A stretch of 64,000 nt of DNA from Candidatus Levybacteria bacterium RIFCSPLOWO2_02_FULL_37_18 (lineage in GTDB: Bacteria; Patescibacteriota; Microgenomatia; Levybacterales; UBA12049): positions 28,869 through 92,868 of the forward strand of contig MFPD01000011.1 in NCBI GenBank assembly GCA_001784115.1, in the 5' to 3' direction. This document shows positions 15,982 through 59,685 of this stretch, piece after piece. Every line of letters starts with the position of its first letter. The first letter of the stretch is position 1. Made by a program: the position numbers and the translations under genes. A model generated the notes under the pieces. It had not been told where the DNA came from, searched no databases, and saw only the letters and a program-made list of their open reading frames with translations.

Positions 15982-16191
15982 TTTCTTTTTTTGTTTTCAA
16001 TTTTGCATCAGTTATTCTTCTAATGTTAAAGTGCGTCCAATCGCTATATTTTTTTACGAGGATTTTTTTGAACGATTTCTTGTTTGAAAAGCATTAGTAT
16101 ATGAACCTTCGTTACCCATAAATCATACAAAACCAATTTCTGGTCTAATTCTTTTTGCTTTTCCGAAATAATAAAATGATCCGTGTTCATA

Positions 16192-16969: not shown

Positions 16970-17009
16970 AGCTACGCCGTCATTAAATTCAAAAGTATAA
17001 CTACCATCC

Positions 17010-17371
17010 CAGGCATTGAGCCAATGATTGCATCTGCAATTTTAGGAGAGATTGGGGACATTAAAAGATTTCCCAATGTTCCATCTCTAATTGCTTATGC
17101 AGGACTGGACCCCACTACCTTTGAATCGGGAAGCAGCATCACAAAACACAGGAAGCTTTCTAAGAAAGGCTCTAAGTATTTAAGAACTGCACTATGGCAG
17201 GGTACTGTTTACTCTTTGGTACATAATCCCAACTTAAAAGCATTCTATGACAAGAAGCTCTCTGAGGGAAAACCAAAACAAGTAGCTTTAGGTGCTGTGA
17301 CCAACAAACTTACCAGGATTATTTATGGCATCCTAAGATCTGGTCAAGATTATCAACTAGATTTTAGTTAG
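17010..17371 (+). mobile_element. IS110-family transposase C-terminal fragment (Transposase_20 domain only)
   Basis: IPGIEPMIASAILGEIGDIKRFPNVPSLIAYAGLDPTTFESGSS...GSKYLRTALWQGTVYSLVHNPNLKAFYDKKLSEGKPKQVALGAVTNKLTRIIYGIL is the IS110-family C-terminal signature. No N-terminal DEDD domain upstream (that space is occupied by the argF remnant). Confidence 0.75.
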
Positions 17372-40270: not shown

Positions 40271-41071
40271 ATGATCGATGTTCATTGTCATTTAAATTTC
40301 AAACGTTTTGCAGATGATTATGATGAGGTTATCAAACGAGCTTATAAGGCTGGTGTAACGACAATTATCAATGTAGGAACAAAAATTGATTCAAGTCAAA
40401 AAGCAGTTGAGTTGGCGCAAAAATACGATAATTTATTTGCAATTGTAGGTGCTCATCCCCATCATGCTGACAAACATGAACTTGAGTCTGATTGGCTAGA
40501 ACAGCTGGAAAAACTGGCAAAAAAACCTAAAGTAGTTGCAATCGGTGAAATCGGAATGGATTACTATAGATATCAATCAAACGGAATTGTTGATAAAAAG
40601 CTCCAAATGGAAGTTTTCCAACAACAAATTAAGCTTGCTCATAAACTTAAACTTCCGCTTCAAATCCATAACCGTCACGCTGGTGAAGATATAATCAATA
40701 TATTATTGAATCATAAATCATACTTATTAAATCCGCCCGGTATGTTCCATTGTTTCGCGGGGACTTTTGAAGTATTGAAATCTGCATTGCAGATGGGTTT
40801 TTGCATTGGTTTTGACGGAAATATTACGTATAAAGGCGTTTCTCCCGGAGAAACAGTAGCATTATCCGAGCTCGCAAAACGTATATCCCTTGATAGAATT
40901 GTCATTGAAACAGACAGCCCGTATCTTACCCCCCAACCCCACAGAGGTAGCAGAAATGAGCCTCAATATGCTATACTTACAGGTAAGTTTATCGCGCAAA
41001 TAAAGGATATTTCTTTCCAAGAACTAGACCGCCAAACTACCGAAAACACAAAAAGAATGTTTAGATTATGA
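40271..41071 (+). CDS. tatD: TatD-family metal-dependent deoxyribonuclease/hydrolase
   Basis: MIDVHCHLNF, GAHPHHA, AIGEIGMDY, LPLQIHNRHA, ETDSPYL motifs. Confidence 0.88.
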   Translation: MIDVHCHLNFKRFADDYDEVIKRAYKAGVTTIINVGTKIDSSQKAVELAQKYDNLFAIVGAHPHHADKHELESDWLEQLEKLAKKPKVVAIGEIGMDYYRYQSNGIVDKKLQMEVFQQQIKLAHKLKLPLQIHNRHAGEDIINILLNHKSYLLNPPGMFHCFAGTFEVLKSALQMGFCIGFDGNITYKGVSPGETVALSELAKRISLDRIVIETDSPYLTPQPHRGSRNEPQYAILTGKFIAQIKDISFQELDRQTTENTKRMFRL

Positions 41072-42561
41072 CAAATTTTTTCAATTTCATTTTTACCAGA
41101 TACCCTATTAAAACCAGAAGATCATTGGAAATGATGCCAGGTTTAATTTCTTGGAGTTTAATATTTTTTCCCGTTTGGGGATCGCTCTTAATTCCTTTTG
41201 CAGTTGCGTATTTTATTCTTCTTTTTGACGTTTTTTGGTTTTATAAGTCATTTTCTTTAGCCATTACTGCTTATATTGCCTCGAAAAAGATATCTCAGGC
41301 AGAAAAAGTAGATTGGCTTTCTGAAACGAAAAACTTCAAAAACTTCAAAAAAGTCACTCATGTTATTGTGATTCCAAATTACAAAGAAAGCTATACTAAG
41401 TTAAACGCTTCAATAGCTTCAATTGCTAACCAGACCTTCCCAACGAAGCACATTCACGTTGTTTTAGCTATGGAAGAAAGAGAGGCAAAAGCAAAAACAA
41501 AAGCAAATAAACTTATAAAAAAGTATAAACATATTTTTGGCAGTATATTTACTACGTTTCATCCAGACATAGAAGGAGAGATCAAAGGCAAATCCTCTAA
41601 TGAGAGCTACGGAGGAAAACAAGCTTATAAAAAACTTGTCGAAACAGGGCTTATTGATATTAAACACGCAACAATTTCTTCGGTTGACGCTGATTCAATT
41701 TTTGACAAACAGTATTTCTCCTACCTTACATTTAAATTCCTTAAAAATCCAAAACGGTTTGGCACATTTTGGCAGTCCGCAAATGTAAATTATAATAATT
41801 TTTGGAATGTACCAGCTCCTGTGAGAGTGCTATCATTCTTTTCCAGTTTGTATCGAACAGCTCTTTTGATTCAGCAGGATAGACTCGTTGCGAATTCAAC
41901 CTATTCTCTTTCATTTGTAATGCTTCATAAAATCGGCTACTGGGATGTCGATGTAATCCCTGAGGATTACAGAATTTTCTTTAAAGCATTTTACAAACTG
42001 CAAGGAAATGCCTGGGTTGATCCGATATTCTTAAAAACTTCAATGGATGCTCCACTTTCGTCAAGCTATATAAAAAGTCTTAAAAATAAATACAATCAAG
42101 AGCGCAGATGGTCGTGGGGGGTTTCCGACGATCCCCTTTTTATAAAATGGTGGCTGACAACTCCCAACGTGCCATTTTTAAGAAAAACCATTCTTCTTTA
42201 TAACGTCTTACTTGATCACTTTCTCTGGCCGGTTAATTGGTTTATTATTACCGTTGCTGCTAATATTATGCCATTTGTTAATCCAGTTTTTTCACGGACA
42301 ACCTTGGGTTATAACCTTCCCAGATTAGCAGGATTTATCCTTACATCATGTCTATTTGCACTTTTAGCAATGATTATTATTGACGTTAGAAATAGGCCTA
42401 AAAATACTCCACTTTCAAGAGTTAGGCAATTTCTTTTTCCGCTTGAATTTGTCTTGCTTCCTGTGGTCGGATTTTTTCTTTCTACCCTTCCTGCGTTAAT
42501 ATCCCATACCCAGCTTATGTTTGGTAAACGTCTCGAATATAAAGTCACCGAGAAATTATGA
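41068..42561 (+). CDS. Membrane-bound family 2 glycosyltransferase
   Basis: N-terminal TM pair, GT-A fold region (VIVIPNYKES...ANQTFP...HIHVV...SVDADSIF; DxD-like), then four C-terminal TM helices. ATGA-overlapped with the next gene. Confidence 0.65.
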   Translation: MTNFFNFIFTRYPIKTRRSLEMMPGLISWSLIFFPVWGSLLIPFAVAYFILLFDVFWFYKSFSLAITAYIASKKISQAEKVDWLSETKNFKNFKKVTHVIVIPNYKESYTKLNASIASIANQTFPTKHIHVVLAMEEREAKAKTKANKLIKKYKHIFGSIFTTFHPDIEGEIKGKSSNESYGGKQAYKKLVETGLIDIKHATISSVDADSIFDKQYFSYLTFKFLKNPKRFGTFWQSANVNYNNFWNVPAPVRVLSFFSSLYRTALLIQQDRLVANSTYSLSFVMLHKIGYWDVDVIPEDYRIFFKAFYKLQGNAWVDPIFLKTSMDAPLSSSYIKSLKNKYNQERRWSWGVSDDPLFIKWWLTTPNVPFLRKTILLYNVLLDHFLWPVNWFIITVAANIMPFVNPVFSRTTLGYNLPRLAGFILTSCLFALLAMIIIDVRNRPKNTPLSRVRQFLFPLEFVLLPVVGFFLSTLPALISHTQLMFGKRLEYKVTEKL

Positions 42562-44108
42562 AAATTTTCGCCAAGGCAGAAAAAAGCAAAATATGCTGGT
42601 TTTTACTTATCATCTCTGCATTTTTCTTTCTTCTTCGAATACCTTCATTTATAGAGCCATACTGGTACGGCGATGAAGGAATTTACCAAGTAATAGGCAT
42701 GGGGCTTAGGAATGGCAGGTTATTATACAGAGATATTTGGGATAATAAACCTCCGCTTTTGTATGTTTTATATGCTCTGTACAACTCCGATCAATTCACC
42801 ATTCGTCTTGTATCAGCACTCTTTGGCATAGGATCAATCATTGTCTTTTATTTTTTAGCCCAAAATTTATTTAAAAAACATATTGCATATAGTGTTACAA
42901 GTGTGTATGCGTTTCTTTTTTCTCTTCCACTTTTTGAAGGAAACATTGCCAATGCGGAAAACTTTATGCTTTTTCCCATTATTCTTTCTGCTCTCTTTAT
43001 CTATAAAGCTTCCGAACTTGAACCTCCAAAAACAACTATCAAATCATTCTCTCTTTCCTATATACTACATACCAAATACCATATACTCTTATTTTCTGCA
43101 GGTCTTATTCTTTCTTTTGCATTTCTTTTTAAAATTGTCGCCATATTCGATTTTATCGCATTTTTTCTTTTTCTGTTTTTTGTGCATCATCCCAAAAATT
43201 TCTCAAAAAAAAATATATCAAGAATTGTTGAATATAGTACATATTCTATAAAAACATTTCTGCAACTTTTATTAGGATTTTTTATTCCTATTTTTATTAC
43301 TGTTTTGTTTTTTTTCTTTCAGGGTGCCCTTCCTGATTTTTTACACGCCGCGTTTATTCAAAACGTTGGATATGTTGGATATGGTAATACATTATTTTTT
43401 ACTCAAGGATTATTGGTAATAAAGCTTATTCTTTTATCCGGCGTTTGTTTTTTTCTATTTTTAAAAAGAGCGCATATTCCAAAAATACTGCTTTTTATCC
43501 TTCTGTGGCTTTCTTTTTCTGTATTTAATGCTTTTTTTTCCGCCAGGCCCTATACTCATTATGCATTAGTTCTTCTTCCCAGTTTTTGCCTTTTTTTGGG
43601 AGCAACTTTTTCCAACCGATTAAAAACGTTAAGCAAGGCAGAACAAAAACGTCAAAAAATATTACTTACCTTACTTATTGTATTAATAATACTTGTGTAT
43701 AAAAACTTTTGGCTCTACGGAAAAAATATTTCGTATTATCAAAACTTTTTTTTATTCTTAACAAACAAAAAATCTGTAACCATGTATAGATCGTTTTTTG
43801 ATTCTAAAACTCCCCGGGACTATGAACTATCCGCTTTAATAAAACCAAAAAAAGATACGCTATTTATATGGGGAAATAACGCCCAAGTGTATACGCTTTT
43901 AGGCGCACTTCCGCCGGGTCGCTATACTGTCGCGTATCATATTAATTCTTCCCTGCAAACTTTAAAAGAAACCGAACTCGCTCTTTCCAAAATAAAACCA
44001 AAGTATATAATCATAATGCCGGATGTAGGAATATTCCCATATAGCTTATCGGGATATAATCAAATATATAAGATTCGAGATGTTTCAATATATGAAAGAA
44101 GTTTTTAA
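42558..44108 (+). CDS. GT-C fold membrane glycosyltransferase (GT39/ArnT/PMT-like, polyprenyl-phosphate-sugar dependent)
   Basis: Multi-TM protein with N-terminal loop EPYWYGDEGIYQVIGMGLRNGRLLYRDIWDNKPPLLY (DE/extracytoplasmic loop-1 signature of GT39/GT83). Confidence 0.65.
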   Translation: MKIFAKAEKSKICWFLLIISAFFFLLRIPSFIEPYWYGDEGIYQVIGMGLRNGRLLYRDIWDNKPPLLYVLYALYNSDQFTIRLVSALFGIGSIIVFYFLAQNLFKKHIAYSVTSVYAFLFSLPLFEGNIANAENFMLFPIILSALFIYKASELEPPKTTIKSFSLSYILHTKYHILLFSAGLILSFAFLFKIVAIFDFIAFFLFLFFVHHPKNFSKKNISRIVEYSTYSIKTFLQLLLGFFIPIFITVLFFFFQGALPDFLHAAFIQNVGYVGYGNTLFFTQGLLVIKLILLSGVCFFLFLKRAHIPKILLFILLWLSFSVFNAFFSARPYTHYALVLLPSFCLFLGATFSNRLKTLSKAEQKRQKILLTLLIVLIILVYKNFWLYGKNISYYQNFFLFLTNKKSVTMYRSFFDSKTPRDYELSALIKPKKDTLFIWGNNAQVYTLLGALPPGRYTVAYHINSSLQTLKETELALSKIKPKYIIIMPDVGIFPYSLSGYNQIYKIRDVSIYERSF

Positions 44109-44445
44109 TACGGTTAAAAAAGATAAAATTCTCTATGTAAGTTTTAGTATAGCTGGGGTACTTATGATTATAAATTGGACATACACAGCATTTTTATTTA
44201 ATCGTCTTCCTCCTTTTCTGCCTTTGTTCAACCAGCTGGCCTGGGGAGAAAAAAGAGTAGGAAATAAATCTGAAATTTTTATTCCTATTGCAATAGTTTT
44301 TGCTGTATTCATAAGTAATTTCCTTATTTCCTCTTTCCTTTATTCAAAAACTCCGCTTATCTCAAGAATACTTTGTATAACAACTCTTCTGATCTCTTTG
44401 TTTGCGCTTCTATTTACCATCCGAACCATAGGTCTTGTGTTATAA
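44080..44445 (+). CDS. Hypothetical small membrane protein
   Basis: 121-aa ORF with 3 predicted TM helices inside the envelope gene cluster. Confidence 0.35.
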   Translation: MFQYMKEVFNTVKKDKILYVSFSIAGVLMIINWTYTAFLFNRLPPFLPLFNQLAWGEKRVGNKSEIFIPIAIVFAVFISNFLISSFLYSKTPLISRILCITTLLISLFALLFTIRTIGLVL

Positions 44446-45511
44446 CATGACAACTTTTTATTTCATAATTCTTCTCCCGATAACTATATCCTTTTTAGCC
44501 GCAAGCATTCTTACTCCCATTTGTATACATATTTTGAAAAAAATTGGATTATTTGATGATCCTAAATTACGAAAACATCCAGGAGTTATTCATACCAAAC
44601 CAATCCCCCGAGGAGGAGGAATTCCTCTTTTTTTAGGAGTTTTTATTACAGCTTTGTATTTTCTTCCCATAAATGGAATAACTATTTCTCTTTTTATAGC
44701 TTCTTTTATTTCTCTTGTGGTTGGAGTTTTAGATGATAAATTTGATATTTCACCATATATTCGCTTTGTAATAAATATTCTTTCGGCTGCATTAGTTGTT
44801 TTTAATGGTGTTGGTGTTCCTTTTATTACCAATCCTTTTGCGCCTAGTGTTTTACATCTTGACACTATTGCGCTTTTTTCTTTTGGAACAATTACGATCT
44901 ACCTCTCGCATATTGTATCGCTTTTGTGGATTGCTTGGGTAATTAATATGCTTAACTGGAGTAAGGGGGTTGACGGACAAATGCCTGGAATCGTAGCAAT
45001 TTCAGCCACAGTAATAGGTCTTTTGTCCCTTCGATATACCCTCTTAGACCCTCTTTCTATTACTTCTGCAAAACTTTCGTTTATTATCGCTGGAAGCGCG
45101 TTGGGATTTTTGTTATTTAATTATTATCCGGCACGAATTTTTCCCGGTTACGGGGCAACATCAATATATTTATTGCTGGCTGTGGCCTCTCTACTGTCAA
45201 GTGCAAAACTTGCTACCGCAATATTAGTCATGGGAATTCCTATGGTAGACGGGTTATTTACCATTATCCGAAGAATCGTAAGCGGACGATCTCCTTTTTG
45301 GCACGATAAAAAACATCTTCATCACCTGCTGCTTGAATTAGGACTATCGCAAAAACACATTGCATTGTTTTATTGGAGTATTTCTGCTATATTAGGTGCG
45401 TTATCGCTTACGCTTTCAAGCAGTGGTAAATTTTTTGCTATAGTAATGCTTGGTGTACTCGTTGGAGGCACGTTGCTTTTCTTACACGTTGCATTAAGGA
45501 AAAACTCATGA
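44435..45511 (+). CDS. Polyprenyl-phosphate N-acetylhexosamine-1-phosphate transferase (MraY/WecA family, GT4)
   Basis: Cytoplasmic loop motifs DDPKLRKHPGVIHTKPIPRGGGI, VVGVLDDKFDISP, NMLNWSKGVDG. ~10 TM. Confidence 0.8.
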   Translation: MCYNMTTFYFIILLPITISFLAASILTPICIHILKKIGLFDDPKLRKHPGVIHTKPIPRGGGIPLFLGVFITALYFLPINGITISLFIASFISLVVGVLDDKFDISPYIRFVINILSAALVVFNGVGVPFITNPFAPSVLHLDTIALFSFGTITIYLSHIVSLLWIAWVINMLNWSKGVDGQMPGIVAISATVIGLLSLRYTLLDPLSITSAKLSFIIAGSALGFLLFNYYPARIFPGYGATSIYLLLAVASLLSSAKLATAILVMGIPMVDGLFTIIRRIVSGRSPFWHDKKHLHHLLLELGLSQKHIALFYWSISAILGALSLTLSSSGKFFAIVMLGVLVGGTLLFLHVALRKNS

Positions 45512-46452
45512 GCAGACTATTATATAACACGCTCAAGCTGCTTCGGCCGAGACAATGGATTAAAAACTTCGCCATTTTTGCCGCTATCACGTTTAAAGGA
45601 CAATTATTCGAACCATCGGTATTTTTAAGAGTAAGCATTGCGTTTATTATTTTTTGCATGCTTTCTTCCGCAATTTATATTATTAACGATATCTTTGATG
45701 TCAAAAGAGACCGGCTTCATCCATTCAAACGATTTAGACCTCTGGCCCATAAAGATCTTTCTGTCGAATACGCATTAGCGCTTGCTATGTGTTTGCTGTT
45801 TGTATCGTTTTGGGTAGGGTTTTTTGTAAATCCAACTTTTTTCTTACTTACTATTGCATATTTCCTTCTCCAGGTTTCTTATACTGTTTTCCTCAAACAC
45901 ATTGTTATTTTGGATATCTTAGCAATTGCCTCAGGGTACATCCTTAGAGTTTATGCCGGAGAATTTGCCTCAGGACTTCACATTTCTGTCTGGCTTTTAC
46001 TTACCACAATTTCTATTTCTCTTTTACTTGCTGCAGGAAAACGCAGGTCAGAATTAACGCTTCTTTTAGGAAATCCCAATACAAAAATAGAAATTACGCG
46101 AAAATCACTTTCAAGGTATTCCGAACGTCTCTTGGATGTATATGCTTCGATTTTTGCCACCTCTACATTTATTTCCTATTCGCTTTTTACTTTTTTGGAA
46201 AACGAGTCAGGATTTAAGCTATCAATTGGAGTCCTTATGCCGGATTTTCTGCCATCTTTTTTCCAAAAAAAATGGCTTATGATAACAATATTACCGGTGG
46301 TATATGGACTCATGCGTTATCTAGAAGATGTATACGAACGGCATGAAGGAGAAAGTCCGGAAAGAGTCTTACTTTCTGATAAACCACTCTTAACAAGCGT
46401 GCTTTTATGGATACTTTTGGTTATTGCCATCATCTATTACGTTGGCCCCTAA
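45508..46452 (+). CDS. UbiA-family polyprenyl-phosphate phosphoribosyltransferase (decaprenyl-phosphate 5-phosphoribosyltransferase/Rv3806c-like)
   Basis: RPRQWIKNFAIFAA, YIINDIFDVKRDRLHPFKRFRPLA, LKHIVILD, AGKRRSEL align block-for-block with M. tuberculosis UbiA/Rv3806c (RPRQWVKN..., YLVNDVRDVEADREHPTKRFRPIA, LKHQAVVE, AGKRYAEL). Confidence 0.8.
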   Translation: MSRLLYNTLKLLRPRQWIKNFAIFAAITFKGQLFEPSVFLRVSIAFIIFCMLSSAIYIINDIFDVKRDRLHPFKRFRPLAHKDLSVEYALALAMCLLFVSFWVGFFVNPTFFLLTIAYFLLQVSYTVFLKHIVILDILAIASGYILRVYAGEFASGLHISVWLLLTTISISLLLAAGKRRSELTLLLGNPNTKIEITRKSLSRYSERLLDVYASIFATSTFISYSLFTFLENESGFKLSIGVLMPDFLPSFFQKKWLMITILPVVYGLMRYLEDVYERHEGESPERVLLSDKPLLTSVLLWILLVIAIIYYVGP

Positions 46453-46454
46453 AT

Positions 46455-47312
46455 CTATTTCCTTTCTGCGTAGTCGCTTATTATCCAACCTGTTTTACCG
46501 TCTTCTAATTTTACTTCAAACCACCCGTCTTTTTCAGACACAAACTCAAACGTATTACCAGGATAAACCACAGTTATTTTTGATTCTGTAACTGAATTGC
46601 CGCTTCTGACGTTTAAGTATCCTGTAGGGGTTTCTAATATAGTAACCATCGAAGGCGTATTCGTTGGAGTTGCAGAAGGCGTAGCAAGAGGTGTAGCTTT
46701 AACTTGAGTTTCCCCGCTTACTCCTAAAAAAACAATTGCTTCGAGTTTGTATCCGGAAACGGTTTTAATCCGAAGCGTTTTTTGGTTATACTCGTCTTTT
46801 TTAAATTGCAATTCATGGTCTGAAGAAGTTATATTTTGCAAAAAAAGCGGAGTTGCTCCAACCGATTTACTATCCAACAGAGTTTCTGCTTTTTCAGGCA
46901 TGGAAAGCAATAAAATTTGGGATGATTTTTTTTCATTTGTTGGAGTAAGAGTAATAATACTTCCTTCGGAACTTGCTCCTTTTCCAAATGTCCTGTCAAC
47001 TACAGTCAAAACCGATTTATTGATTTTTATTTTTTGCTCAAAAGGAGAAAGTCCTGCTTCTTGGGTAACTTCATCCGAAACCAATGGAACAAGCCGAATG
47101 GTATACTCTCCTGACGGCAACATGTCACTGACATCACATTTACAAAACGGAGTCTGTCCTATTAATTTTCTGTCTATATACACAGCGCTTTTTGGCGTGC
47201 TGGTTATTTGAAGAGCTCCTTTTCCTTTATCTTTTAGAATAAAAAAATATAATCCTGATACAACTATTACAAGCATGAGAAATGGAACAAAAATTGGAAA
47301 TAGTTTTTGCAT
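46455..47312 (-). CDS. PEGA-domain + bacterial SH3-like domain membrane-anchored protein
   Basis: N-terminal TM, PEGA-like (ALQITSTPKSAVYIDRKLIGQTP...GEYTIRL) and C-terminal SH3b-like (GYLNVRSGNS...GWFEVKLEDGKTGWI). Confidence 0.6.
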   Translation of the reverse strand: MQKLFPIFVPFLMLVIVVSGLYFFILKDKGKGALQITSTPKSAVYIDRKLIGQTPFCKCDVSDMLPSGEYTIRLVPLVSDEVTQEAGLSPFEQKIKINKSVLTVVDRTFGKGASSEGSIITLTPTNEKKSSQILLLSMPEKAETLLDSKSVGATPLFLQNITSSDHELQFKKDEYNQKTLRIKTVSGYKLEAIVFLGVSGETQVKATPLATPSATPTNTPSMVTILETPTGYLNVRSGNSVTESKITVVYPGNTFEFVSEKDGWFEVKLEDGKTGWIISDYAERK

Positions 47313-49569: not shown

Positions 49570-49643
49570 TAACCTATAGTTAAAATAGCACTCAGGAAGC
49601 TTGACACTGTTTTATTTTGCCTATACTATGATATTAGTACCTA

Positions 49644-50812
49644 TGCAACGAAACAAATTTTTAATTGGGGGCATTATTGCTGTTTTGTTGATTACTATTC
49701 CCTTAACGGTCTTTTTACTTGGGCAACAGCAACAAACTCAAACCAAAGCAACACCTGCAACCACACTCTCTTTAGCGCTATCTAATCCCTCTCAAACAGT
49801 TACTGTAGGGCAAGACTTTGGTGTTGATATTAATATCAATCCAGGAAGCAATCAAGTTTCGTATGTAAAAGTGACAATTAATTTTGATGAAACAAAACTA
49901 GCAACCTCAGGAGCAGGATTTGAACCAAGTGCTTCTTTTCCTACCACACTTGAAGGCCCTATATTTACTTCAAACTCGTTTACTGTTGGTCTTTCAATTG
50001 GGGCTGATTACACAAAAGCAGTACAAACACCCGGAAAAGTAGGAAAACTAACATTCCGTGCCAAAGCACTAACCAATGGCACCCAACAACTTGCCAGCTT
50101 TGATACAGGGCAACAAAAAACACTGGTTCTTTCTATTGCAAGCAGCCAAGATAATTATAACGAAAATGTTTTATTGCCAAATCCCGCACCTCTTTCTTTA
50201 GCTATCTCAGCAGGACCAACCGGAACACCCGGGCCAACAGCACCAACCCAAGCACCAACCTGCAGCAACTTAAAAATCGATAGGGTAGCAAGCGGTAATA
50301 CGCCGTTTTCTATTACATTTACCGCTGATGGAAGCGATCCTGACGGGACAATTTTTAGGGTATCTTTTGACTTTGGAGATGGACCAAGTCAAGATGAAAC
50401 TGCCGGCGGTGGCATTGGAACCGGTACAGTAAGTGTCCCTAAATCTCATACGTATAACAATCCAGGAACGTACGAAGCCAGAGCAACCCTCTATGACAAT
50501 AATCAAAACGCAAGTTTGCCTAATACCAAGTGCACAAAAACAATAACTGTAACTCAGGGACCAACTCCCACTCCAGGATCCATTTCTGCGATTACCCCTA
50601 TTCCAACCCCGCCATTATCTGCACAACCAACTGCTATTATTCTTACCCCCACACCGCTTGCTTCTAATCCAACAACTATTGCGCAAAGACCAACTACAAC
50701 TCCACCAGGTCAACCACCGCCAAACTCTGGACCAGGAGATGCCATTCTTGTAGCCGGGGGTATTGGATTTGTCCTATCTGTAATTGGTGCGCTTTTGTTT
50801 TTTGGACTCTAG
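49644..50812 (+). CDS. PKD-domain surface protein with N-terminal signal anchor, Pro/Thr-rich stalk and C-terminal TM
   Basis: MQRNKFLIGGIIAVLLITIPLTVFLLG signal anchor. PKD-like block DGSDPDGTIFRVSFDFGDGPSQ...HTYNNPGTYEARATLYDNNQN. PT-rich stalk (TPTPGSISAITPIPTPP...TTTPPGQPPP). C-terminal hydrophobic helix. ORF-track start (49601) uses TTG; ATG at 49644 preferred. Confidence 0.6.
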
Positions 50813-54694: not shown

Positions 54695-56359
54695 TTAAGG
54701 ATTGGGACGGTTGGGGTCGAGAGTTTCTCCTCGCTCCTGTAATATCTCCCTCCAGTTTCCGATTTTTTTAAACAATAGTAAAAATGTTGTTGCTTCTTTT
54801 ACATTGAAAAGCCAAGTTAAGAATAGATACAATGATAATCCGGCAAAACTTGAAATACCGGTTAAGAAAATAAGATTTATAGTATGTGTTGTATCAAATA
54901 CTAATTGATCGAGCAACTTTATTGGAATATATAATGCAAAACCTGTAAAAAGAGATGCAAAAAAGATTTTTAAAGAGGAAAAAAACATATCTATCTTTTT
55001 AAATCCGCCAATTTTTTTATCCAAAAGAAAAAGCAATACGACTAAATTCAAAATACTTGCAACTGAATACGCAAACGCAATATTTTCTATACCCATTTTA
55101 TATCTCAATATAAATAATACACTCATACCAATCATGCAAAGCGTTGTTATTCCTCCTACGACAAGCGGAGTCTTCGCGTCATGGAGTGCATAAAATCCCC
55201 GGGAAATCAAATAAATTAAAGCATTAGCAAAAACAGATAGCGCAAAATATGCTAAGGTCTTTCCTGTTAAAACAGTAGCCTCCCAATCAAATAAACCAGC
55301 TCCAAATACAAGTCTCACAACGGGAATTCGCAAGACTAAAAAAAGTACAGATACAGGCAGTACCAAATAAAGCATTTGATTAAAACTTGTTAAAAAAGTT
55401 AGCTTAAAGTGCTCAATTCTTTCCCGCTCGCGGGAAAGAACGGGAAAAGCAGCTTGAGCAATCGTTTGCCCAAAAAGCGCAATAGGAGCAAACGCAAGTG
55501 TCTGAGCATAGTCAAAAATTACATAATTTCTCCCAGAGTTAGGAATATATGAAATAAGCGCAATAGTTATCAAAGAACCTACTTGAAAGATTCCGATAGA
55601 AAAAGTTCTGGGCCACATAAGTGAAACAACTTCCTTAATTCCCGGTGTCTCAAACGATATGGATGAAGTAAAAGAAAAACCCACTTTCTTAACGAGGGGG
55701 ATCTGTGCTGCTGCAAAAAAAATGCCTCCCAAAATGATTCCGTATACCGGCCCATATATCCCTAGTATAGGCGATAAAAAAAGAATTCCAAGTATGATCC
55801 CTAAGTTATATGAAGCCGCGGCTATTCCGGGAATAAAAAAATGATTATATGATTGTAGTAATGCGGAAAAAAAAGTAGCAATTAAAAAAAATAATTGTCC
55901 GACAATAACCAGTCTCATCAAATTTGCCATCAATTCCATTTCAGATGCAGAAAATCCAGAACCTGGATTTAATATTTGCAAAAAAAAGGAAGCAAAAATA
56001 AAAAGAATTATCGATAAAATCGAAAAAACCACAACAAAAATTGTCAAAAGTGTGGAGGCCATCTTTCGTGCCTCCGCCTCTTTATTTTTGACAATAAAAT
56101 CTGAAAAAACAGGAATAAACGCAGATGACAAAACTCCCGCTATAATTATCTGAAACAGAAAATCCGGTAATTTAATAGATGCAAGATATACTCCTAAGGT
56201 ATTGGAAGCGCCAAATATTGCCACAAGAAGTCGTTGCCTTATAAGACCTAAGAATTGGGAAAGTATTACGGTTGACATAATAACAAATGCCGCAGATAAA
56301 ATATTCGTTTGTCGCATCGAAATAATATCAATGCTTTTTTGTAAGAATTTTTTCATCAT
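54695..56359 (-). CDS. murJ: Lipid II flippase MurJ (MviN)
   Basis: 14-TM MOP-superfamily topology. N-terminal SAAFVIMSTVILSQFLGLIRQRLLVAIFGASNTLGVYLASIKLPDFL is the MurJ signature region. Confidence 0.85.
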   Translation of the reverse strand: MMKKFLQKSIDIISMRQTNILSAAFVIMSTVILSQFLGLIRQRLLVAIFGASNTLGVYLASIKLPDFLFQIIIAGVLSSAFIPVFSDFIVKNKEAEARKMASTLLTIFVVVFSILSIILFIFASFFLQILNPGSGFSASEMELMANLMRLVIVGQLFFLIATFFSALLQSYNHFFIPGIAAASYNLGIILGILFLSPILGIYGPVYGIILGGIFFAAAQIPLVKKVGFSFTSSISFETPGIKEVVSLMWPRTFSIGIFQVGSLITIALISYIPNSGRNYVIFDYAQTLAFAPIALFGQTIAQAAFPVLSRERERIEHFKLTFLTSFNQMLYLVLPVSVLFLVLRIPVVRLVFGAGLFDWEATVLTGKTLAYFALSVFANALIYLISRGFYALHDAKTPLVVGGITTLCMIGMSVLFILRYKMGIENIAFAYSVASILNLVVLLFLLDKKIGGFKKIDMFFSSLKIFFASLFTGFALYIPIKLLDQLVFDTTHTINLIFLTGISSFAGLSLYLFLTWLFNVKEATTFLLLFKKIGNWREILQERGETLDPNRPNP

Positions 56360-56811: not shown

Positions 56812-56887
56812 CCTCCAATCCCTTTGACAAAAGATATAAAACCTCCTAGACTAATTAAAGGCGTTATGTGTAAACGTCTTGTTTTGT

Positions 56888-57427
56888 ATGATTAAAAAAA
56901 CTCCAACAATAAACTTATTTACAGGAAGAAGTAAAAGCTTTATTGATAGATTTCTAAAATGGGCATTAAGCGTTGGAAGACTTATCATCATTCTAACCGA
57001 AATAATAGCCCTTTCAGCTTTTTTATATAGATTCTCTCTAGACAGACAACTTATTGATCTTAGGGACAAAATAAAATCACAACAAAAAATACTTGACTTG
57101 TATAAAAATAACGAAAAAAAATACAGAAGTCTTCAAGAAAGAATTGCATTATCTTCTCAACTTTCTACTCTAGCTGAAAAAAATACTGACACGCTCAACA
57201 AAATCAATCAAAGTATTCCAATTAATATGTCTGTAAGTAGTCTTACCTTGCAAAAAAAGAGCATGAATATAAATGCAAGTGTACCGTCAATTTCTACACT
57301 CACTTCCTTTATGAAAAAAATAAAAAGTTTTCCAGAAGTAAAAGGAACAACGCTTGAAAGAATTGATAATAGGATATCAAGCTCTACACTCGTATTTAGT
57401 TTAAATGTCTTTCTAAAAGATGAATAA
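56888..57427 (+). CDS. pilN: PilN-like type IV pilus assembly protein
   Basis: N-terminal MIKKTPTINLFTGRSK (INLLP-type motif), single TM, coiled-coil and C-terminal beta domain. ~180 aa. Confidence 0.5.
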   Translation: MIKKTPTINLFTGRSKSFIDRFLKWALSVGRLIIILTEIIALSAFLYRFSLDRQLIDLRDKIKSQQKILDLYKNNEKKYRSLQERIALSSQLSTLAEKNTDTLNKINQSIPINMSVSSLTLQKKSMNINASVPSISTLTSFMKKIKSFPEVKGTTLERIDNRISSSTLVFSLNVFLKDE

Positions 57428-58040
57428 TACAAAAATCAAAAAAAATAATTCTCTATTTCCTGTTAAGAACAAATATCTTGAGTTTCTTCCAAAAATTAAA
57501 GAAGAAAAAATACAAGTAGCAACAACTGTGGGCTTAACATTCCTTGGTATTATTTTGTTTGGTTTGTTTGCAATCAGCCCAACTCTGACAACCATTGCTC
57601 ATCTAAGAAAAAGTTTGGCTGATAATCAAGATTTATTTGCCAAATTGCAAGAGAAAAACAAAAATTTAAGTATTCTCCAGCAAAAATATTCAACCGTGGA
57701 AAAAGATATTCCTACCATTCTGTCTGCACTGCCCCAAAAACCATCGGCACCTGTCTTTCTTGGACAAATACAAACTCTTCTTGTTAGTAATCATCTTAAT
57801 TTAATAAACATTGGATCTCTTGAGGTCGAGCTTACCAAATCTGAAGAAGGCGAAAATCAGTATTCATCGTTTATTTTTAATCTGAGCGCCGATGGATCGA
57901 ATGAGAATGTGCTCACGTTTATAAATTCCTTAATACATGTCAGCAGGATCGCATCTATAGATAACATCTCTCTTGTAGAAAACTCAAAAAAAGGAAATAC
58001 ACAAGTTACAATTACTGGAAAAACGTATTTTAAAAAATAA
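57420..58040 (+). CDS. pilO: PilO-like type IV pilus assembly protein
   Basis: Short cytoplasmic N-terminus, TM, long coiled-coil (LRKSLADNQDLFAKLQEKNKNLSILQQKY) and C-terminal domain. Overlaps the pilN stop, immediately downstream of the PilN-like gene. Confidence 0.45.
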   Translation: MNNTKIKKNNSLFPVKNKYLEFLPKIKEEKIQVATTVGLTFLGIILFGLFAISPTLTTIAHLRKSLADNQDLFAKLQEKNKNLSILQQKYSTVEKDIPTILSALPQKPSAPVFLGQIQTLLVSNHLNLINIGSLEVELTKSEEGENQYSSFIFNLSADGSNENVLTFINSLIHVSRIASIDNISLVENSKKGNTQVTITGKTYFKK

Positions 58041-58042
58041 TT

Positions 58043-58339
58043 ATGAAACAAAAAGACATCTTACTTATCTTAGGCTCTCTTTGTGTAGTTACTATTGCGT
58101 GGATTATTTTTAATATTTATCATACTACTGTCACATCAACAATTCCCGAAACCATAACTACGCAAGTTAAACCAATCACACCGGATTTTGATATAAAAAG
58201 TATTGATGCGCTTAAAAAAAGACAAAAAATAACTCCAAATTTTGGTTTTCCTTCCTCTGGTACTCCTACTCCGACACCTACCCCTTTTCTCTTGCCAAAA
58301 AAGAATCAACCTGCATCTGAAAGCTCATTCCTTAGATGA
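58043..58339 (+). CDS. Small membrane-anchored protein with Thr/Pro-rich tail (pilus-cluster associated)
   Basis: 98 aa, N-terminal TM, ...GTPTPTPTPF. ATGA-overlapped with the downstream gene. Confidence 0.4.
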   Translation: MKQKDILLILGSLCVVTIAWIIFNIYHTTVTSTIPETITTQVKPITPDFDIKSIDALKKRQKITPNFGFPSSGTPTPTPTPFLLPKKNQPASESSFLR

Positions 58340-59685
58340 AAAAAAATATTTTGAGTATTCGTATTCCAACCTTGTTGGGAATTTTTTTAATACTGGTTAC
58401 TCTTGCATCAACATCGTATCTTGCAAATCAGGGTGTAATTACGATTGGAAGAGCAAGTTTAACACAAGCCCCACAAAGAGTGCGCATAACGAATGTCTCA
58501 GATACTTCATTTACGGTTTCTTATAAAACCGAGACTCCAACACTAGGATCTCTTAACACTGGAAAAGATAAAAGCTTAGGCCTTGTAATCAATGACGACA
58601 GAGATAGTCAAACCGCAAAGCCTCATGTACTTCATTACTTTACTGTAAAAAATCTTGCCCCTAACACACTATATTATTTTTCAATTGTATCCGGTGACAC
58701 TATATACACAAACAATAATACTCCTTTTACAGTGACAACGCGTGAATTAGGCGATACTACTTCTTCACCTAATTCAATGAGCGGAAAAATAATTACACAA
58801 GAAGCAACAGCCCCTCAGGAAGCAATCGTATATGTAAAAAAATCATCCGATCCCAAATCTATATCTACATTAGTAAATAATGACGGGACGTATTCTTTGG
58901 ATGTATCAAAAATTGGAATTAAAAATAATTCTTCAGACAGTCACATTCTCCAAATGCTTGTTCTTGGAGATCAAAAAGAATCAAATATTACTATTAGATC
59001 TTCTGCTATCCATCCTGTCCCAATAATTACTCTTGCCAAAGATTACGATTTTATTCAAAACGTTTTAGAACCGTCTGCGTCAACAAGCGCAAATTTTCAA
59101 TCTTTTCCCTCATTTAATTTTACCAGTAACTCTACAATACCTCAAATTATTACACCAAAAAATGAAGAAATCTTCAAAGATGCCAAACCTCAATTCTTTG
59201 GAACTGCATCTGCATCAGCCTTGGTAAAAATTACTATCCATTCTCAAGATATAATACAAGATCAAGTAAAAACAGACCCTAACGGCAGATGGTCATATCG
59301 TCCAATTCAACCTCTTTCTCCCGGAAATCATACTATTTCTATAACAACCCAGGATCAGACAGGAATTACAAAAAGTATCGAAAAAACATTTATTGTTTTT
59401 GCATCCGGAAGCCAATTTATCGAGCCTTCTGTTTCTCCTATTCCGCCTACTCCCACCTCATCACCTACAATAACCCCCACGCCTTCCATTCCCACAGCAA
59501 CACCTTTGCCTCCAACTCCTACTTCATTACTTTTGCCATCTCCAACCATAATCCCTCCTGCAAGCTCAACTACTCTTCCTCCGCCCGGAAGTTCAACTGC
59601 CTTGCTTACAGGACTTAAGGGAATTGGAATAACTCTTGCTGGCTTACTTCTTCTAATTCTCTCCCGAGGCGTTTTACATATATGA
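58336..59685 (+). CDS. Surface protein: signal anchor + Fn3-like and Ig-like domains + Pro/Thr-rich stalk + C-terminal TM
   Basis: Fn3-like RVRITNVSDTSFTVSYKTETPT...NTLYYFSIVSGD. PT-rich PTPTSSPTITPTPSIPTATPLPPTPTS. C-terminal ALLTGLKGIGITLAGLLLLILSRGVLHI is a possible non-canonical sorting signal. Confidence 0.55.
   Translation: MKKNILSIRIPTLLGIFLILVTLASTSYLANQGVITIGRASLTQAPQRVRITNVSDTSFTVSYKTETPTLGSLNTGKDKSLGLVINDDRDSQTAKPHVLHYFTVKNLAPNTLYYFSIVSGDTIYTNNNTPFTVTTRELGDTTSSPNSMSGKIITQEATAPQEAIVYVKKSSDPKSISTLVNNDGTYSLDVSKIGIKNNSSDSHILQMLVLGDQKESNITIRSSAIHPVPIITLAKDYDFIQNVLEPSASTSANFQSFPSFNFTSNSTIPQIITPKNEEIFKDAKPQFFGTASASALVKITIHSQDIIQDQVKTDPNGRWSYRPIQPLSPGNHTISITTQDQTGITKSIEKTFIVFASGSQFIEPSVSPIPPTPTSSPTITPTPSIPTATPLPPTPTSLLLPSPTIIPPASSTTLPPPGSSTALLTGLKGIGITLAGLLLLILSRGVLHI

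Follow-up and report, generated by a model that had tools for sequence, protein, structure and literature searches.

Three-component pentofuranose systems have been described as widespread by Kelly et al. 2024 (PMC11127046), a report that does not mention a CPR example. Two known systems can be viewed as precedents that share the logic of the locus described here. Lactococcus pF27D carries a polyprenyl-phosphate 5-phosphoribosyltransferase (PPPRS) with HAD-IB, GtrA, and LCP proteins, and Chondrinema combines a PPPRS with DprE1-like, DprE2-like, and GT39 proteins. Herein, we analyze a window of 64,000 nucleotides from Candidatus Levybacteria, groundwater bacteria of the CPR/Microgenomates with a tiny genome. 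An earlier note on this DNA had proposed a lipid-linked pentose pathway and considered it unexpected for such an organism, a judgment that in principle no longer holds given how widespread these systems are.

The candidate operon comprises five genes on the plus strand at positions 41068-46452, with the shared orientation and overlapping stops and starts that the earlier note had reported. In order, they encode a GT2 enzyme (41068-42561, 497 aa), a GT-C protein (42558-44108, 516 aa; GT-C1 of the three GT-C genes, GT-C1 to GT-C3), a small membrane protein with three transmembrane segments (3-TM protein; 44092-44445, 117 aa, or 121 aa from the ATG at 44080), an MraY/WecA-family protein termed GT4 after Pfam Glycos_transf_4 (44447-45511, 354 aa, or 358 aa if the start is at 44435), and the UbiA-family PPPRS (45508-46452, 314 aa). 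ATGA overlaps join an upstream TatD gene to GT2, GT2 to GT-C1, and GT4 to PPPRS. The GT-C1 and 3-TM genes overlap by 17-29 nt, and the 3-TM and GT4 genes are separated by 1 nt with ATG 44447 or overlap by 11 nt with TTG 44435. Because 59 of the 60 Levybacteria species loci with sufficient flank share the block in collinear order, at protein identities of 40-71%, we regard the five ORFs as real genes rather than chance ORFs. The term “island” used previously does not fit these data: the GC content of the block (0.34-0.36) is like that of its flanks (~0.36), and the block sits inside conserved housekeeping synteny. Rather, Levybacteria have inherited these five genes vertically, as a core operon.

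The gene directly upstream of GT2 in Levybacteria loci encodes a TatD-family metal-dependent hydrolase (40271-41071, plus strand; Pfam TatD_DNase, 274 bits; TIGR00010, 271 bits). It overlaps GT2 by 4 nt in 38 of 65 cases and is probably co-transcribed with it; in locus L100, no TatD gene lies between MetRS and GT2. On the other side, 2 nt beyond PPPRS, a convergent gene (46455-47312, minus strand; Pfam PEGA and SH3_3) encodes a surface protein with a Pro/Thr/Ser-rich linker. Such a gene is convergent to PPPRS within 900 nt in all 74 loci having the flank, and it accompanies the block in L096 and L097. We speculate that its product could be an acceptor or a wall-binding protein. The only recognisable lipid-linked-glycan flippase within the window is a MurJ-family protein (54695-56359, minus strand; Pfam MurJ, 226.6 bits), which is most likely the lipid II flippase.

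The UbiA-family translation contains the motifs RPRQWIKN, NDIFDVKRDRLHPFKRFRP, and AGKRRSEL, as had been noted before, and matches Pfam UbiA (PF01040) with 83 bits. The NCBIfam DPPR-synthase models score 235, 228, and 180 bits, including the equivalog NF008978 (234.6 bits, above its curated cut-off of 207) and NF008977 (227.7 bits), and the generic “UbiA family prenyltransferase” model NF006088 scores 167 bits. The sole PDB match at E<0.01 is Rv3806c (8j8j; E=6.5e-40, residues 4-309), the enzyme with which tuberculosis bacteria begin making lipid-linked ribose/arabinose donors. All 11 PRPP-binding residues reported for that enzyme (PMC10994848) are present, as R13, K19, Y57, N60, D64, K74, R77, Q122, Y125, K130, and Y144, and these are invariant among 30 orthologues. 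Furthermore, the N-D-x-x-D-x-x-x-D and R-x-x-E spacing is that of the residues mutated in Citrobacter ORF15. Thus, assignment of the protein to the DPPR-synthase family, as a PPPRS, is well supported by its sequence. The previous designation “mycobacterial-type” was correct as to family, but it is a historical label that misleads because the family is widespread, with ~1,730 clusters (50% identity) at E<=1e-30 and representatives in Proteobacteria, Bacteroidota, Cyanobacteria, Lactococcus, and haloarchaea.

GT2 scores 25.2 bits against Pfam Glyco_trans_2_3, just under the gathering score, although its orthologues do have the precomputed domain, and it matches PgaC/NodC models weakly. Hydrophobic segments lie on both sides of the GT domain, and the residues D207xD209, E299-D300, and Q344-E-R-R-W348 are invariant across 38 orthologues. 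The best Foldseek matches, obtained with a poor model (pLDDT 60.8), are hyaluronan synthases followed by BcsA and chitin synthases. GT2 identity is ~71% across Levybacteria, 46% in L100, and 29% in L097. We therefore consider GT2 a candidate backbone polymer synthase of the integral-membrane, processive type (hyaluronan/chitin/cellulose-synthase-like).

GT-C1 scores 23.5 bits against Pfam PMT_2, just below the gathering score, with the precomputed domain present in orthologues. Its predicted structure is confident and the top fold-search matches are all GT-C fold proteins, which at the level of structure prediction confirms the GT-C transferase previously proposed for the operon. The fold search does not separate pentosyl from mannosyl, Ara4N, or oligosaccharyl transferases, and GT-C1 is a candidate user of a polyprenyl-P-pentose donor. 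It may not use this donor, or may be one user among others, because the gene is missing from L044 and L097, which both retain GT2-small-GT4-PPPRS, and because PPPRS elsewhere in Microgenomates pairs with enzymes of the GT-C2/3 type.

The 3-TM protein has no Pfam or NCBIfam match. It carries a conserved loop, LPPxxPxFNQxPWGxxR, whose PP..P..N..PW motif is about invariant in 66 aligned orthologues. The start of its gene overlaps the GT-C1 stop in most species, and in L097 the protein is fused onto the N-terminus of the GT4 homologue. These characteristics suggest that it acts as a partner of GT4. GT4 itself matches Pfam PF00953 (Glycos_transf_4) with 80 bits and TIGR02380 (wecA) with 101 bits, far under the cut-off of 326. 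When aligned with E. coli WecA and solved MraY, it retains LDDKFD and HLHH, and it reads NWSKGVDG for NxxNxxDGxDG and FPGYGAT for FMGDxGS. The altered motifs show no variation among orthologues or in L095, L096, and L097, and they leave the protein without two canonical Asp residues that serve in catalysis or metal binding. By these motifs, GT4 is a divergent subfamily of the MraY/WecA superfamily (PNPT). The superfamily named in the earlier note is therefore retained, but the HexNAc-1-P transferase reaction is uncertain, and a priming step is doubtful, because the two Asp residues are missing. GT4 might serve as a primer enzyme or as a non-canonical partner of PPPRS.

Although the earlier note had confined the system to 41068-46452, which holds for the five genes, it reaches past them to a second locus that starts 13 kb downstream of the operon. 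This locus begins with an amine-oxidase/phytoene-desaturase-type FAD flavoprotein (59682-60953, plus strand; Amino_oxidase, 82 bits), which scores 390 bits against NF005560 (cut-off 252), an NCBIfam model titled “hypothetical protein,” and belongs to the LAAO/PDS/PPOX family by PDB profile. ATGA-coupled to it is GT-C2 (60950-62614, plus strand; PMT_2, 28.5 bits, above the gathering score), followed by GT-C3 (62673-64000, plus strand), whose open frame is cut by the window end. The full GT-C3 gene, seen in L087 (11724-13343), encodes 539 aa and scores 29.7 bits against PMT_2. The downstream locus also includes an LCP ligase gene. In addition, a gene ~20 kb downstream, just beyond the window end, encodes a ~181-aa DxDG protein with no Pfam or NCBIfam match and a weak PDB profile match to Pnkp1 (E=0.069); in a related lineage, this gene immediately follows PPPRS.

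Elsewhere in Microgenomates, an amine-oxidase-type flavoprotein gene flanks PPPRS on one side and two GT-C genes flank it on the other. Flavoprotein orthologues (37-42% identity) adjoin PPPRS in L093, L098, and L100, and likewise in L112 and L116, whereas one gene separates the two in L099. GT-C2 orthologues come after PPPRS in L098, L100, L112, and L116, and GT-C3 orthologues lie beside it in L093 (33%) and in L098 and L100 (42%). In all five loci where the flavoprotein adjoins it, PPPRS lies beside second-locus orthologues drawn from GT-C2 and/or GT-C3, a methyltransferase, GT1, the DxDG protein, and DUF2298, with a set that differs from locus to locus. L100 shares the S20-PilN/O-Big_13-FADox string of the window, but with PPPRS inserted. 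The flavoprotein is thus a recurrent genomic partner of PPPRS, and its homologues on Agrobacterium and Burkholderia plasmids lie within HAD::PPPRS-DprE1-DprE2-SDR-FADox-GtrA operons.

Given the identity of PPPRS and the presence of a GT-C fold enzyme in the same operon, a lipid-linked pentose pathway is the best reading, and this part of the earlier proposal stands. We estimate a probability of roughly 60% that the operon is part of an assembly line for cell-envelope glycans whose lipid-linked pentofuranose donor derives from PRPP. As is well supported by sequence, PPPRS would move ribose-5-phosphate from PRPP onto polyprenyl phosphate at the cytoplasmic face. The 5-phosphate would then be removed, for which the best candidate is the DxDG protein, which weakly resembles a phosphatase domain of the Pnkp type, and the flavoprotein may modify the lipid-linked pentose, with polyprenyl-P-ribofuranose as the default product. 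Once this lipid is flipped, GT-C1, GT-C2, and GT-C3 would transfer the pentose to an extracytoplasmic acceptor, most likely a wall polysaccharide that is made by GT2 and/or primed by GT4 with its 3-TM partner, and that may be joined to peptidoglycan by the LCP ligase.

A search for DprE1 and DprE2, as proposed in the earlier note, yielded no homologues within ~10 kb in 80 species, and the same is true for HAD-IB and GtrA, with one reference sequence used for each of the four proteins. Likewise, neither the operon nor the DNA within that distance in these species encodes a phosphatase, a flippase, or an epimerase from any recognised family. Because no DprE1 or DprE2 was found nearby, ribofuranose is the default pentose, and the arabinofuranose option raised previously is not indicated.

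It is possible, but rather unlikely, that two pathways merely lie side by side. In that case, PPPRS would act solely for the downstream locus with the flavoprotein, GT-C2, GT-C3, DUF2298, and LCP, and a polymer unrelated to it would be built by GT2, GT-C1, the 3-TM protein, and GT4. One example would be a glycan, either polyprenyl-PP-primed or synthase-made, for which GT-C1 would function as a hexosyl transferase, a ligase, or a polymerase. Consistent with such a separation, PPPRS is flanked by flavoprotein and GT-C2/GT-C3 orthologues in the five Microgenomates loci described above, none of whose GT-C proteins matches GT-C1, and the relationship of GT-C1 to GT-C2/3 is remote (E about 1e-4). 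Moreover, MetRS-GT2 is kept in L100 without GT-C1-small-GT4-PPPRS beside it, and a GT2 with a GtrA_DPMS_TM domain (polyprenyl-P-hexose synthase type) lies beside more GT-Cs in L095, indicating that these lineages have alternative donors. However, translation of GT4 and PPPRS is coupled, and the two genes remain neighbours in more than 75 species as well as in L095, L096, and L097, where PPPRS identity falls to as little as 49% (49-51% in L095 and L097). In L096, the whole block, PPPRS included, relocates as a unit while its neighbours change. Operon membership conserved in bacteria over such evolutionary depth usually reflects a common function, which argues for a single assembly line.

An improbable alternative is that GT-C1 and/or GT-C2/3 are PMT- or TfpW-like enzymes that place pentofuranose or another sugar on surface proteins or pilins, at linkers rich in Ser and Thr, rather than on a polysaccharide. 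The processive GT2 synthase, the PNPT-family protein, and the LCP ligase found in the two loci instead indicate a wall polysaccharide. In addition, GT-C1 is no closer in fold to PMT than to ALG3 or PIG-M, and it lacks the PMT MIR domain, its C-terminus being predicted to form a small extracytoplasmic alpha/beta domain. One might also suspect an aromatic or quinone/heme prenyltransferase (MenA/UbiA/CtaB-like) in a cluster unrelated to pentose, since close homologues are entered in some JGI records as “4-hydroxybenzoate polyprenyltransferase” and the Pfam match is to the generic UbiA family. This identity is effectively refuted by the NCBIfam models for heme O synthase, UbiA, DGGGP synthase, and ChlG, which reach at most 43 bits compared to 180-235 bits for the DPPR-synthase models, as well as by the Rv3806c match and the PRPP-binding residues. 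Specifically, equivalents of the phosphoribose-binding residues K28, Y70, Q135, and Y157 of Rv3806c, stated to be non-conserved in the UbiA superfamily (PMC10994848), are all in place. The protein therefore groups with DPPR synthases rather than with MenA, UbiA, CtaB, or ChlG, as the earlier note had anticipated.

Because PPPRS and membrane sugar-transferases are conserved together in a core operon, Levybacteria probably decorate their cell envelope with pentose sugars by using a variant of a known pathway. This variant is of the same kind as mycobacterial arabinan synthesis and the three-component systems of Citrobacter, in that pentofuranose glycosylation would be PRPP-dependent and GT-C-mediated, but its accessory parts are different.

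The operon under study consists of five open reading frames on the forward strand (41068-46452), which lie exactly where the earlier note had placed them. In order, they encode a membrane glycosyltransferase of family GT2 (41068-42561), a GT-C glycosyltransferase called GT-C1 (42558-44108), a small membrane protein (starting at 44080 or 44092 and ending at 44445), a protein of the MraY/WecA superfamily called GT4 (starting at 44435 or 44447 and ending at 45511), and a UbiA-family protein (45508-46452). ATGA overlaps occur at the junctions between GT2 and the preceding TatD gene, between GT2 and GT-C1, and between GT4 and the UbiA-family gene, and the genes for GT-C1 and the small protein overlap by 17-29 nt. 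These overlapping stops and starts are consistent with a single translationally coupled operon. A promoter scan of the window performed at chance (23 hits compared to 27.9 expected), and transcription units were not defined; terminator-like hits (19 compared to 5.9 expected from shuffled sequence) are likewise uninformative on this point. The window contains no match to any Rfam family and no tRNA, and thus no riboswitch of the PRPP type.

Based on its sequence, the UbiA-family protein is predicted to be a polyprenyl-phosphate 5-phosphoribosyltransferase (PPPRS) with an intact PRPP site. Its translation carries the motifs quoted in the earlier note, and it scores 234.6 bits on the NF008978 model (“decaprenyl-phosphate phosphoribosyltransferase”), which exceeds the cut-off of 207. 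Scores of 227.7 bits on NF008977 (slightly under the cut-off of 234), 180 bits on a further sister model, and 167 bits on the generic “UbiA family prenyltransferase” model NF006088 were also obtained. Clustering with quinone prenyltransferases, the outcome that had been named as evidence against the assignment, is not observed, given that the models for heme O synthase, 4-hydroxybenzoate prenyltransferase, DGGGP synthase, and chlorophyll synthase reach at most 43 bits (best named model, 42.7). When the protein was compared to all solved structures, the sole matches at E<0.01 were two entries for Mycobacterium tuberculosis Rv3806c, and alignment to one of these (8j8j; E=6.5e-40) pairs residues 4-309 with residues 13-299, indicating full-length homology.

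Eleven residues of Rv3806c bind PRPP or Mg (R22, K28, Y70, N73, D77, K87, R90, Q135, Y138, K143, and Y157), and other UbiA enzymes do not share the phosphoribose-binding positions (PMC10994848). In our alignment, all eleven are retained as R13, K19, Y57, N60, D64, K74, R77, Q122, Y125, K130, and Y144, and each is invariant among 30 orthologues. The spacings N-D-x-x-D-x-x-x-D and R-x-x-E are also the same as those mutated in Citrobacter ORF15. The description of this enzyme as “mycobacterial-type” is too narrow, because a HMMER search of 1.84 billion representative proteins yielded 1,730 clusters at E<=1e-30. Homologues are present on plasmids of Alphaproteobacteria, Bacteroidota, Cyanobacteria, Actinobacteria, Lactococcus, and haloarchaea, and most have already been named by the NCBI pipeline. 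A literature search found no paper that ties bacteria of the candidate phyla radiation (CPR) to DPPR synthase.

Relatives were collected by a scan that used one genome per GTDB species. This recovered 329 of them, and the best 80 of the 329 all belong to Levybacteria. Among loci with at least 5.6 kb of upstream flank, the series TatD-GT2-GT-C-small-GT4-PPPRS is whole and collinear in 59 of 60. The sole exception, from Levybacteria RIFCSPHIGHO2_01_FULL_37_17 (L044, 7097-10942), lacks only GT-C1 and runs from GT2 through the small protein and GT4 to PPPRS. A convergent gene for a PEGA-SH3 protein directly follows PPPRS in every locus with downstream flank (74/74). Median identities to the window proteins are 71% for GT2, 67% for PPPRS, 63% for GT4, 48% for GT-C1, and 40% for the small protein, compared to 61% for MetRS and 75% for GroEL. 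The operon is surrounded by housekeeping genes (HrcA-GrpE-DnaK, MetRS, GroES/EL, and LepA), and in L096, a less closely related genome whose PPPRS is 59% identical, the block lies among rearranged neighbours, TatD and PEGA-SH3 included. Therefore, this region is not an “island” as had been proposed: its GC content (0.34-0.36) equals that of the flanks, and the block is a core operon of Levybacteria.

Several other features of the window were observed. The PEGA-SH3 protein (46455-47312, reverse strand) and a PKD-domain protein (49601-50812, forward strand) are conserved operon neighbours with Pro/Thr/Ser-rich linkers, and it is possible that they are O-glycosylation substrates or wall-binding proteins. 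Farther upstream, apparent gene decay is evident at 14917-17371, where an M20 peptidase gene (ArgE/DapE-like) is broken into 14917-15426 and 15550-15981. An ornithine/aspartate carbamoyltransferase gene is split there into reading frames at 16192-16710 and 16691-16969, and abuts a fragment of an IS110-family transposase (16946-17371, Transposase_20). At 8665-11704, Pfam results from the matching contig place a sortase gene after that of a 781-aa protein carrying a Baseplate_J-like domain, which is an odd pair for a housekeeping region.

The GT2 protein is predicted to be a synthase-type membrane enzyme. It carries an invariant processive-synthase signature (D207xD209, E299-D300, and Q344ERRW348), with hydrophobic segments on either side of the GT-A domain (residues 26-59 and 417-480). 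Neither sequence nor profile searches with GT2 retrieved anything from the PDB. A Foldseek search placed hyaluronan synthases at the top, followed by cellulose (BcsA) and chitin synthases, at a TM-score of about 0.37 for an AF2 model whose pLDDT is 60.8. The model is poor because the sequences in the input alignment are 81% identical, and these fold matches are thus indicative only.

The predicted structure of GT-C1 resembles solved GT-C enzymes, with a multi-TM core and a first extracytoplasmic loop bearing an acidic motif in which D39-E40 is invariant. By sequence it is of the PMT_2 type, as are two GT-C proteins encoded downstream in the window (GT-C2 and GT-C3), and GT-C1 had no match in the PDB by either sequence or profile. 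A PPPRS and a GT-C fold transferase are therefore encoded in one operon. It is uncertain that GT-C1 is the enzyme that uses the lipid-linked donor, since it is dispensable, being absent from L044 and from a more distant relative (L097), and since other lineages couple PPPRS with GT-C2 or GT-C3.

The earlier assignment of GT4 to the WecA/MraY family holds, as the protein scores 80.2 bits on the Pfam Glycos_transf_4 model (gathering score 27). Its designation as a HexNAc-1-P transferase is unproven, given that two canonical aspartates are missing and that its scores fall below the equivalog cut-offs for WecA (100.9 compared to 326), MraY (28.3 compared to 192), and archaeal MraY (67 compared to 450). 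Alignment with Escherichia coli WecA and solved MraY reveals that GT4 retains the DD motif (LDDKFD), the HxHH motif, and the second Asp of DGxDG. The motif NxxNxxDGxDG reads NWSKGVDG, such that Lys replaces the first Asp, and FMGDxGS reads FPGYGAT, such that the Asp of FMGD is gone. According to the mutagenesis literature, the latter residue is essential in MraY and WecA. Both losses are invariant in the orthologues and in the more distant loci L095-L097, and are found in all PPPRS-linked homologues examined. GT4 may represent a functionally distinct subfamily of the PNPT (MraY/WecA) superfamily.

The small protein is made up of three helices; its N-terminus is positively charged, and one loop (LPPxxPxFNQxPWGxxR) is nearly invariant. 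No Pfam or NCBIfam model matches it, even when hits up to E=10 are allowed. In L097 (8026-9540), where PPPRS is 49% identical and GT2 is kept but GT-C1 is not, this protein is naturally fused to the N-terminus of GT4, forming a product of 504 aa. The fusion makes it more likely that the 3-TM protein is a partner or subunit of GT4 than a flippase. A role as a GtrA- or SMR-type flippase was considered and rejected, based on this fusion, the presence of three rather than four helices, and the absence of similarity to GtrA.

The genomic contexts of more distant PPPRS genes link the operon to a second region of the same genome. One distant locus (L095, 51%) has the order GT-C1-like, small, GT4, PPPRS, and L097 carries MetRS, TatD, GT2, the small-GT4 fusion, a regulator, and PPPRS. 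In a Shapirobacteria locus (L098, 46%) and in the loci L100, L093, L112, and L116, PPPRS is flanked by genes for an amine-oxidase-type FAD protein and GT-C proteins; in L099, the flavoprotein gene is one gene away from PPPRS, which is followed by a 195-aa ORF. These neighbours in other Microgenomates are orthologues of genes that lie downstream of the operon within the window. They correspond to the flavoprotein gene (59682-60953; 37-42% identity, E<=1e-100) and to the genes for GT-C2 (60950-62614) and GT-C3 (starting at 62673). None of the GT-C proteins adjacent to PPPRS in these genomes matches GT-C1. L100 has the same string of S20, PilN/O, Big_13, and flavoprotein genes that occupies 56.4-61 kb of the window, with PPPRS inserted ahead of the GT-C genes.

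A matching contig that reaches past the window end carries this second envelope-glycan locus (L087, 8733-20790). It encodes the flavoprotein (ATGA-coupled to GT-C2), GT-C2, GT-C3, an 80-aa ORF, a methyltransferase, a GT1, a 181-aa protein that we call the DxDG protein, a DUF2298 protein, and an LCP ligase, after which the contig carries a TIM gene. When 80 metagenome loci were gathered with a flavoprotein profile, the usual order was Big_13, flavoprotein, GT-C2, GT-C3, and, after further genes, the 181-aa protein, DUF2298, and LCP. Orthologues of the methyltransferase, GT1, 181-aa protein, GT-C3, and DUF2298 directly follow PPPRS in L093. Because orthologues of this locus surround PPPRS in other Microgenomates, the system appears to be split in Levybacteria between the core operon (locus A) and the flavoprotein region (locus B). 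Just upstream of the flavoprotein, at 56879-59685, is a pilus-assembly-like string that includes PilO, a 98-aa ORF, and a 449-aa Big_13/fn3 surface protein, along with a weak PilN-like match (PF05137, E=0.006, under the gathering score). The Big_13 gene adjoins the flavoprotein gene in 55 of the 80 metagenome loci.

The enzymes that complete known pathways of this type are not evident nearby. Using one reference each, tblastn searches with HAD-IB and GtrA from Lactococcus and with DprE1-like and DprE2-like proteins from Chondrinema found no match in the window, in the adjoining ~10 kb on either side, or in the 80 Levybacteria loci. No phosphoribose 5-phosphatase of a recognised type (HAD, or PAP2 as in Rv3807c) is encoded in the operon or in ~10 kb around it among 80 species. 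One protein of locus B is a candidate for this step. Members of the DxDG protein family have an invariant N-terminal DxDG followed by (S/T)xR, K, and DDxL(D/E), as in DxDxT phosphatases, and an orthologue adjoins PPPRS in L093. Neither Pfam nor NCBIfam yields a match to the protein at E<=10, and PDB searches by sequence and by profile gave only a weak profile hit to the Pnkp1 phosphatase domain (E=0.069).

The product of the TatD gene was also considered as the missing phosphatase. The idea arose from the overlap between TatD and GT2 and from the presence of a PHP-domain protein after PPPRS on a haloarchaeal plasmid. We set this candidate aside because L100 carries no TatD between MetRS and GT2, and MetRS-TatD is a widespread housekeeping pair. 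On the plasmid in question, from Halostagnicola larsenii (L102, 5944-8532), the PPPRS gene precedes those for a PHP-domain phosphoesterase and an LPG-synthase-TM-domain protein, and a gene for a DolP-mannose mannosyltransferase (GT-C) lies upstream of it. In Marivivens, PPPRS is followed by a PAP2 protein. With PAP2, HAD, and PHP proteins each following PPPRS in different lineages, the phosphatase role is seemingly filled by non-homologous enzymes.

The flavoprotein scores 390 bits on NF005560 (“hypothetical protein”) and belongs to the family of L-amino-acid oxidases, phytoene desaturases, and protoporphyrinogen oxidases, whose fold differs from that of DprE1. Homologues are present in Agrobacterium (26% identity, E 3e-42) and Burkholderia (23%, E 6e-45). 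The notion that this protein is a plain substitute for DprE1 is weakened by its co-occurrence with DprE1/DprE2-like genes in both of these organisms. It is an uncharacterised protein that recurs alongside PPPRS in different phyla. Among the operon and selected neighbouring genes, Pfam searches for a dedicated flippase detected no MATE, GtrA, or SMR domain, and a MurJ-family protein is the only member of a candidate flippase family present.

Comparison of sequences and structures reveals a PPPRS, three GT-C proteins, a GT2 of the synthase type, an LCP ligase, and an atypical PNPT that has a 3-TM partner; the operon is conserved, and the genes are linked across lineages. We propose that PPPRS produces polyprenyl-P-ribose-5-P, from which a phosphatase, perhaps the DxDG protein, would generate polyprenyl-P-ribofuranose, and that the flavoprotein may modify this intermediate. 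After a flip across the membrane, the GT-C proteins would add the pentose to an extracytoplasmic glycan made by GT2, primed by GT4, or both, and the LCP ligase would finally join this glycan to peptidoglycan. The acceptor might be a polysaccharide, or alternatively Ser/Thr/Pro-rich surface proteins and pilins.

Taken together, one reading is that Microgenomates, including all Levybacteria, make an arabinogalactan-like pentofuranose wall polymer by means of new accessory enzymology. We regard this reading as tentative, with a probability of somewhat less than one in five. The polymer would be conserved, possibly essential, and in function comparable to an arabinogalactan layer, though found outside the Actinobacteria. 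As parts of the same reading, the flavoprotein would act on the polyprenyl-P-pentose or on its lipid, the DxDG protein would remove the 5-phosphate as a miniature Pnkp-like phosphatase, and the PNPT lacking the canonical catalytic aspartates would act together with the 3-TM protein in a non-canonical role, such as handling or flipping the lipid-linked pentose. Given that its family also occurs in PPPRS-DprE1-DprE2 operons of Agrobacterium and Burkholderia, the flavoprotein would on this reading be a general part of bacterial pentofuranose glycosylation that has so far escaped notice. The type of pathway is already known, and the protein names have already been given by NCBI. What is new is the status of the genes as a core operon across Levybacteria, their broader occurrence among Microgenomates, the division of the system between two loci, and three accessory protein families that have no described function in pentofuranose chemistry.

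Members of the CPR/Patescibacteria are ultrasmall, mostly uncultured, and probably epibiotic, and to our knowledge almost nothing has been established experimentally about their envelope. The retention of a PRPP-dependent, lipid-linked pentose pathway as a core operon beside chaperone and translation genes, in organisms that have lost the greater part of their biosynthesis, suggests that a surface pentofuranose glycan matters for their lifestyle. The pathway offers targets for glycan analysis, for lectin or antibody probes, and for heterologous biochemistry, and the comparative data flag three protein families as candidate components of pentofuranose glycosylation: the NF005560 flavoprotein (shared with Proteobacteria), the small DxDG protein, and the PNPT that lacks two aspartates, taken together with the 3-TM protein. 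If the pentose proves to be arabinofuranose or a new derivative, then a hallmark of the mycobacterial wall, and a drug-target chemistry, would extend to a distant bacterial branch.

Elements of this system can be recognised in several characterised or predicted pathways. In Salmonella enterica serovar Borreze, synthesis of the WecA-primed O:54 antigen (WbbE/WbbF) depends on a membrane-bound GT2 synthase, which elongates a polyprenyl-PP-HexNAc primer supplied by a PNPT. Unlike the Levybacteria system, this pathway has no pentose or GT-C step, and its PNPT is a canonical WecA. The D-arabinofuranosylation of group IV pilins in Pseudomonas aeruginosa involves a PPPRS, DprE1/E2 homologues, and the GT-C TfpW, and modifies a protein acceptor (PMC11127046). 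This is a further pairing of PPPRS and GT-C outside Actinobacteria, although it requires the DprE1/E2 homologues that were not found in the Levybacteria loci searched.

Closer parallels in gene content are found on plasmids. In Agrobacterium salinitolerans pDG3-1a and Burkholderia stagnalis plas2, a homologue of the window flavoprotein (L183, 6932-8215, and L184, 6974-8269, respectively), a PPPRS, and a SAM methyltransferase are encoded in one operon, in the order methyltransferase, HAD-PPPRS fusion, DprE1-like, DprE2-like, SDR epimerase, flavoprotein, and GtrA. These uncharacterised operons differ from those of Levybacteria in having DprE1/DprE2-like proteins, an extra SDR, a GtrA flippase, and a HAD-fused PPPRS of the ORF15 type. 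A Chondrinema locus likewise combines PPPRS with DprE1-like, DprE2-like, and GT39 proteins. In the monoderm Lactococcus cremoris, plasmid pF27D carries a PPPRS (33% identical) in a wall-polysaccharide cluster that, as in Levybacteria, includes an LCP ligase and no epimerase. In contrast to Levybacteria, HAD-IB and GtrA genes immediately follow PPPRS, and the cluster is plasmid-borne and strain-variable.

The three-component system for extracytoplasmic pentofuranose glycosylation in Citrobacter youngae O1/O2 (ORF15-ORF14-ORF12; Kelly et al. 2024, PMC11127046) would share with Levybacteria a UbiA-family PPPRS that forms polyprenyl-P-ribofuranose(-5-P) from PRPP, and both systems have a GT-C encoded with PPPRS and a tie to a surface glycan cluster. 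In such systems, optional epimerases determine which pentose is used, and ribofuranose results when they are absent (PMC11127046). In neither locus of Levybacteria was a MATE or GtrA flippase found, and the Levybacteria PPPRS lacks the fused HAD phosphatase domain of the Citrobacter protein. The Levybacteria loci add further conserved parts, namely a GT2 of the synthase type, an amine-oxidase-type flavoprotein, and a divergent PNPT that is partnered by a 3-TM protein. No CPR example appears in the Citrobacter paper or its supplement (PMC11127046). In addition, the Citrobacter genes are a serotype-variable add-on, whereas the Levybacteria system is a core operon across a whole CPR lineage.

The mycobacterial pathway for decaprenyl-phospho-arabinose (DPA) and arabinogalactan (Rv3806c, Rv3807c, DprE1/DprE2, Rv3789, Aft/Emb GT-C enzymes, WecA, GlfT2, and Lcp1) provides the other principal comparison. 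The pair formed by DprE1 (FAD_binding_4-type) and DprE2 (an SDR reductase) is a point of difference, as it was not found in the Levybacteria loci searched. The Levybacteria PPPRS is a full-length homologue of Rv3806c that keeps all of the PRPP-site residues, and both systems follow a common logic in which a PNPT-family gene, a GT2 polymerase, a PPPRS, a GT-C, and an LCP ligase are combined. The scheme we propose for Levybacteria follows the same logic as the three-component pentofuranose systems (PMC11127046) and mycobacterial arabinan synthesis.
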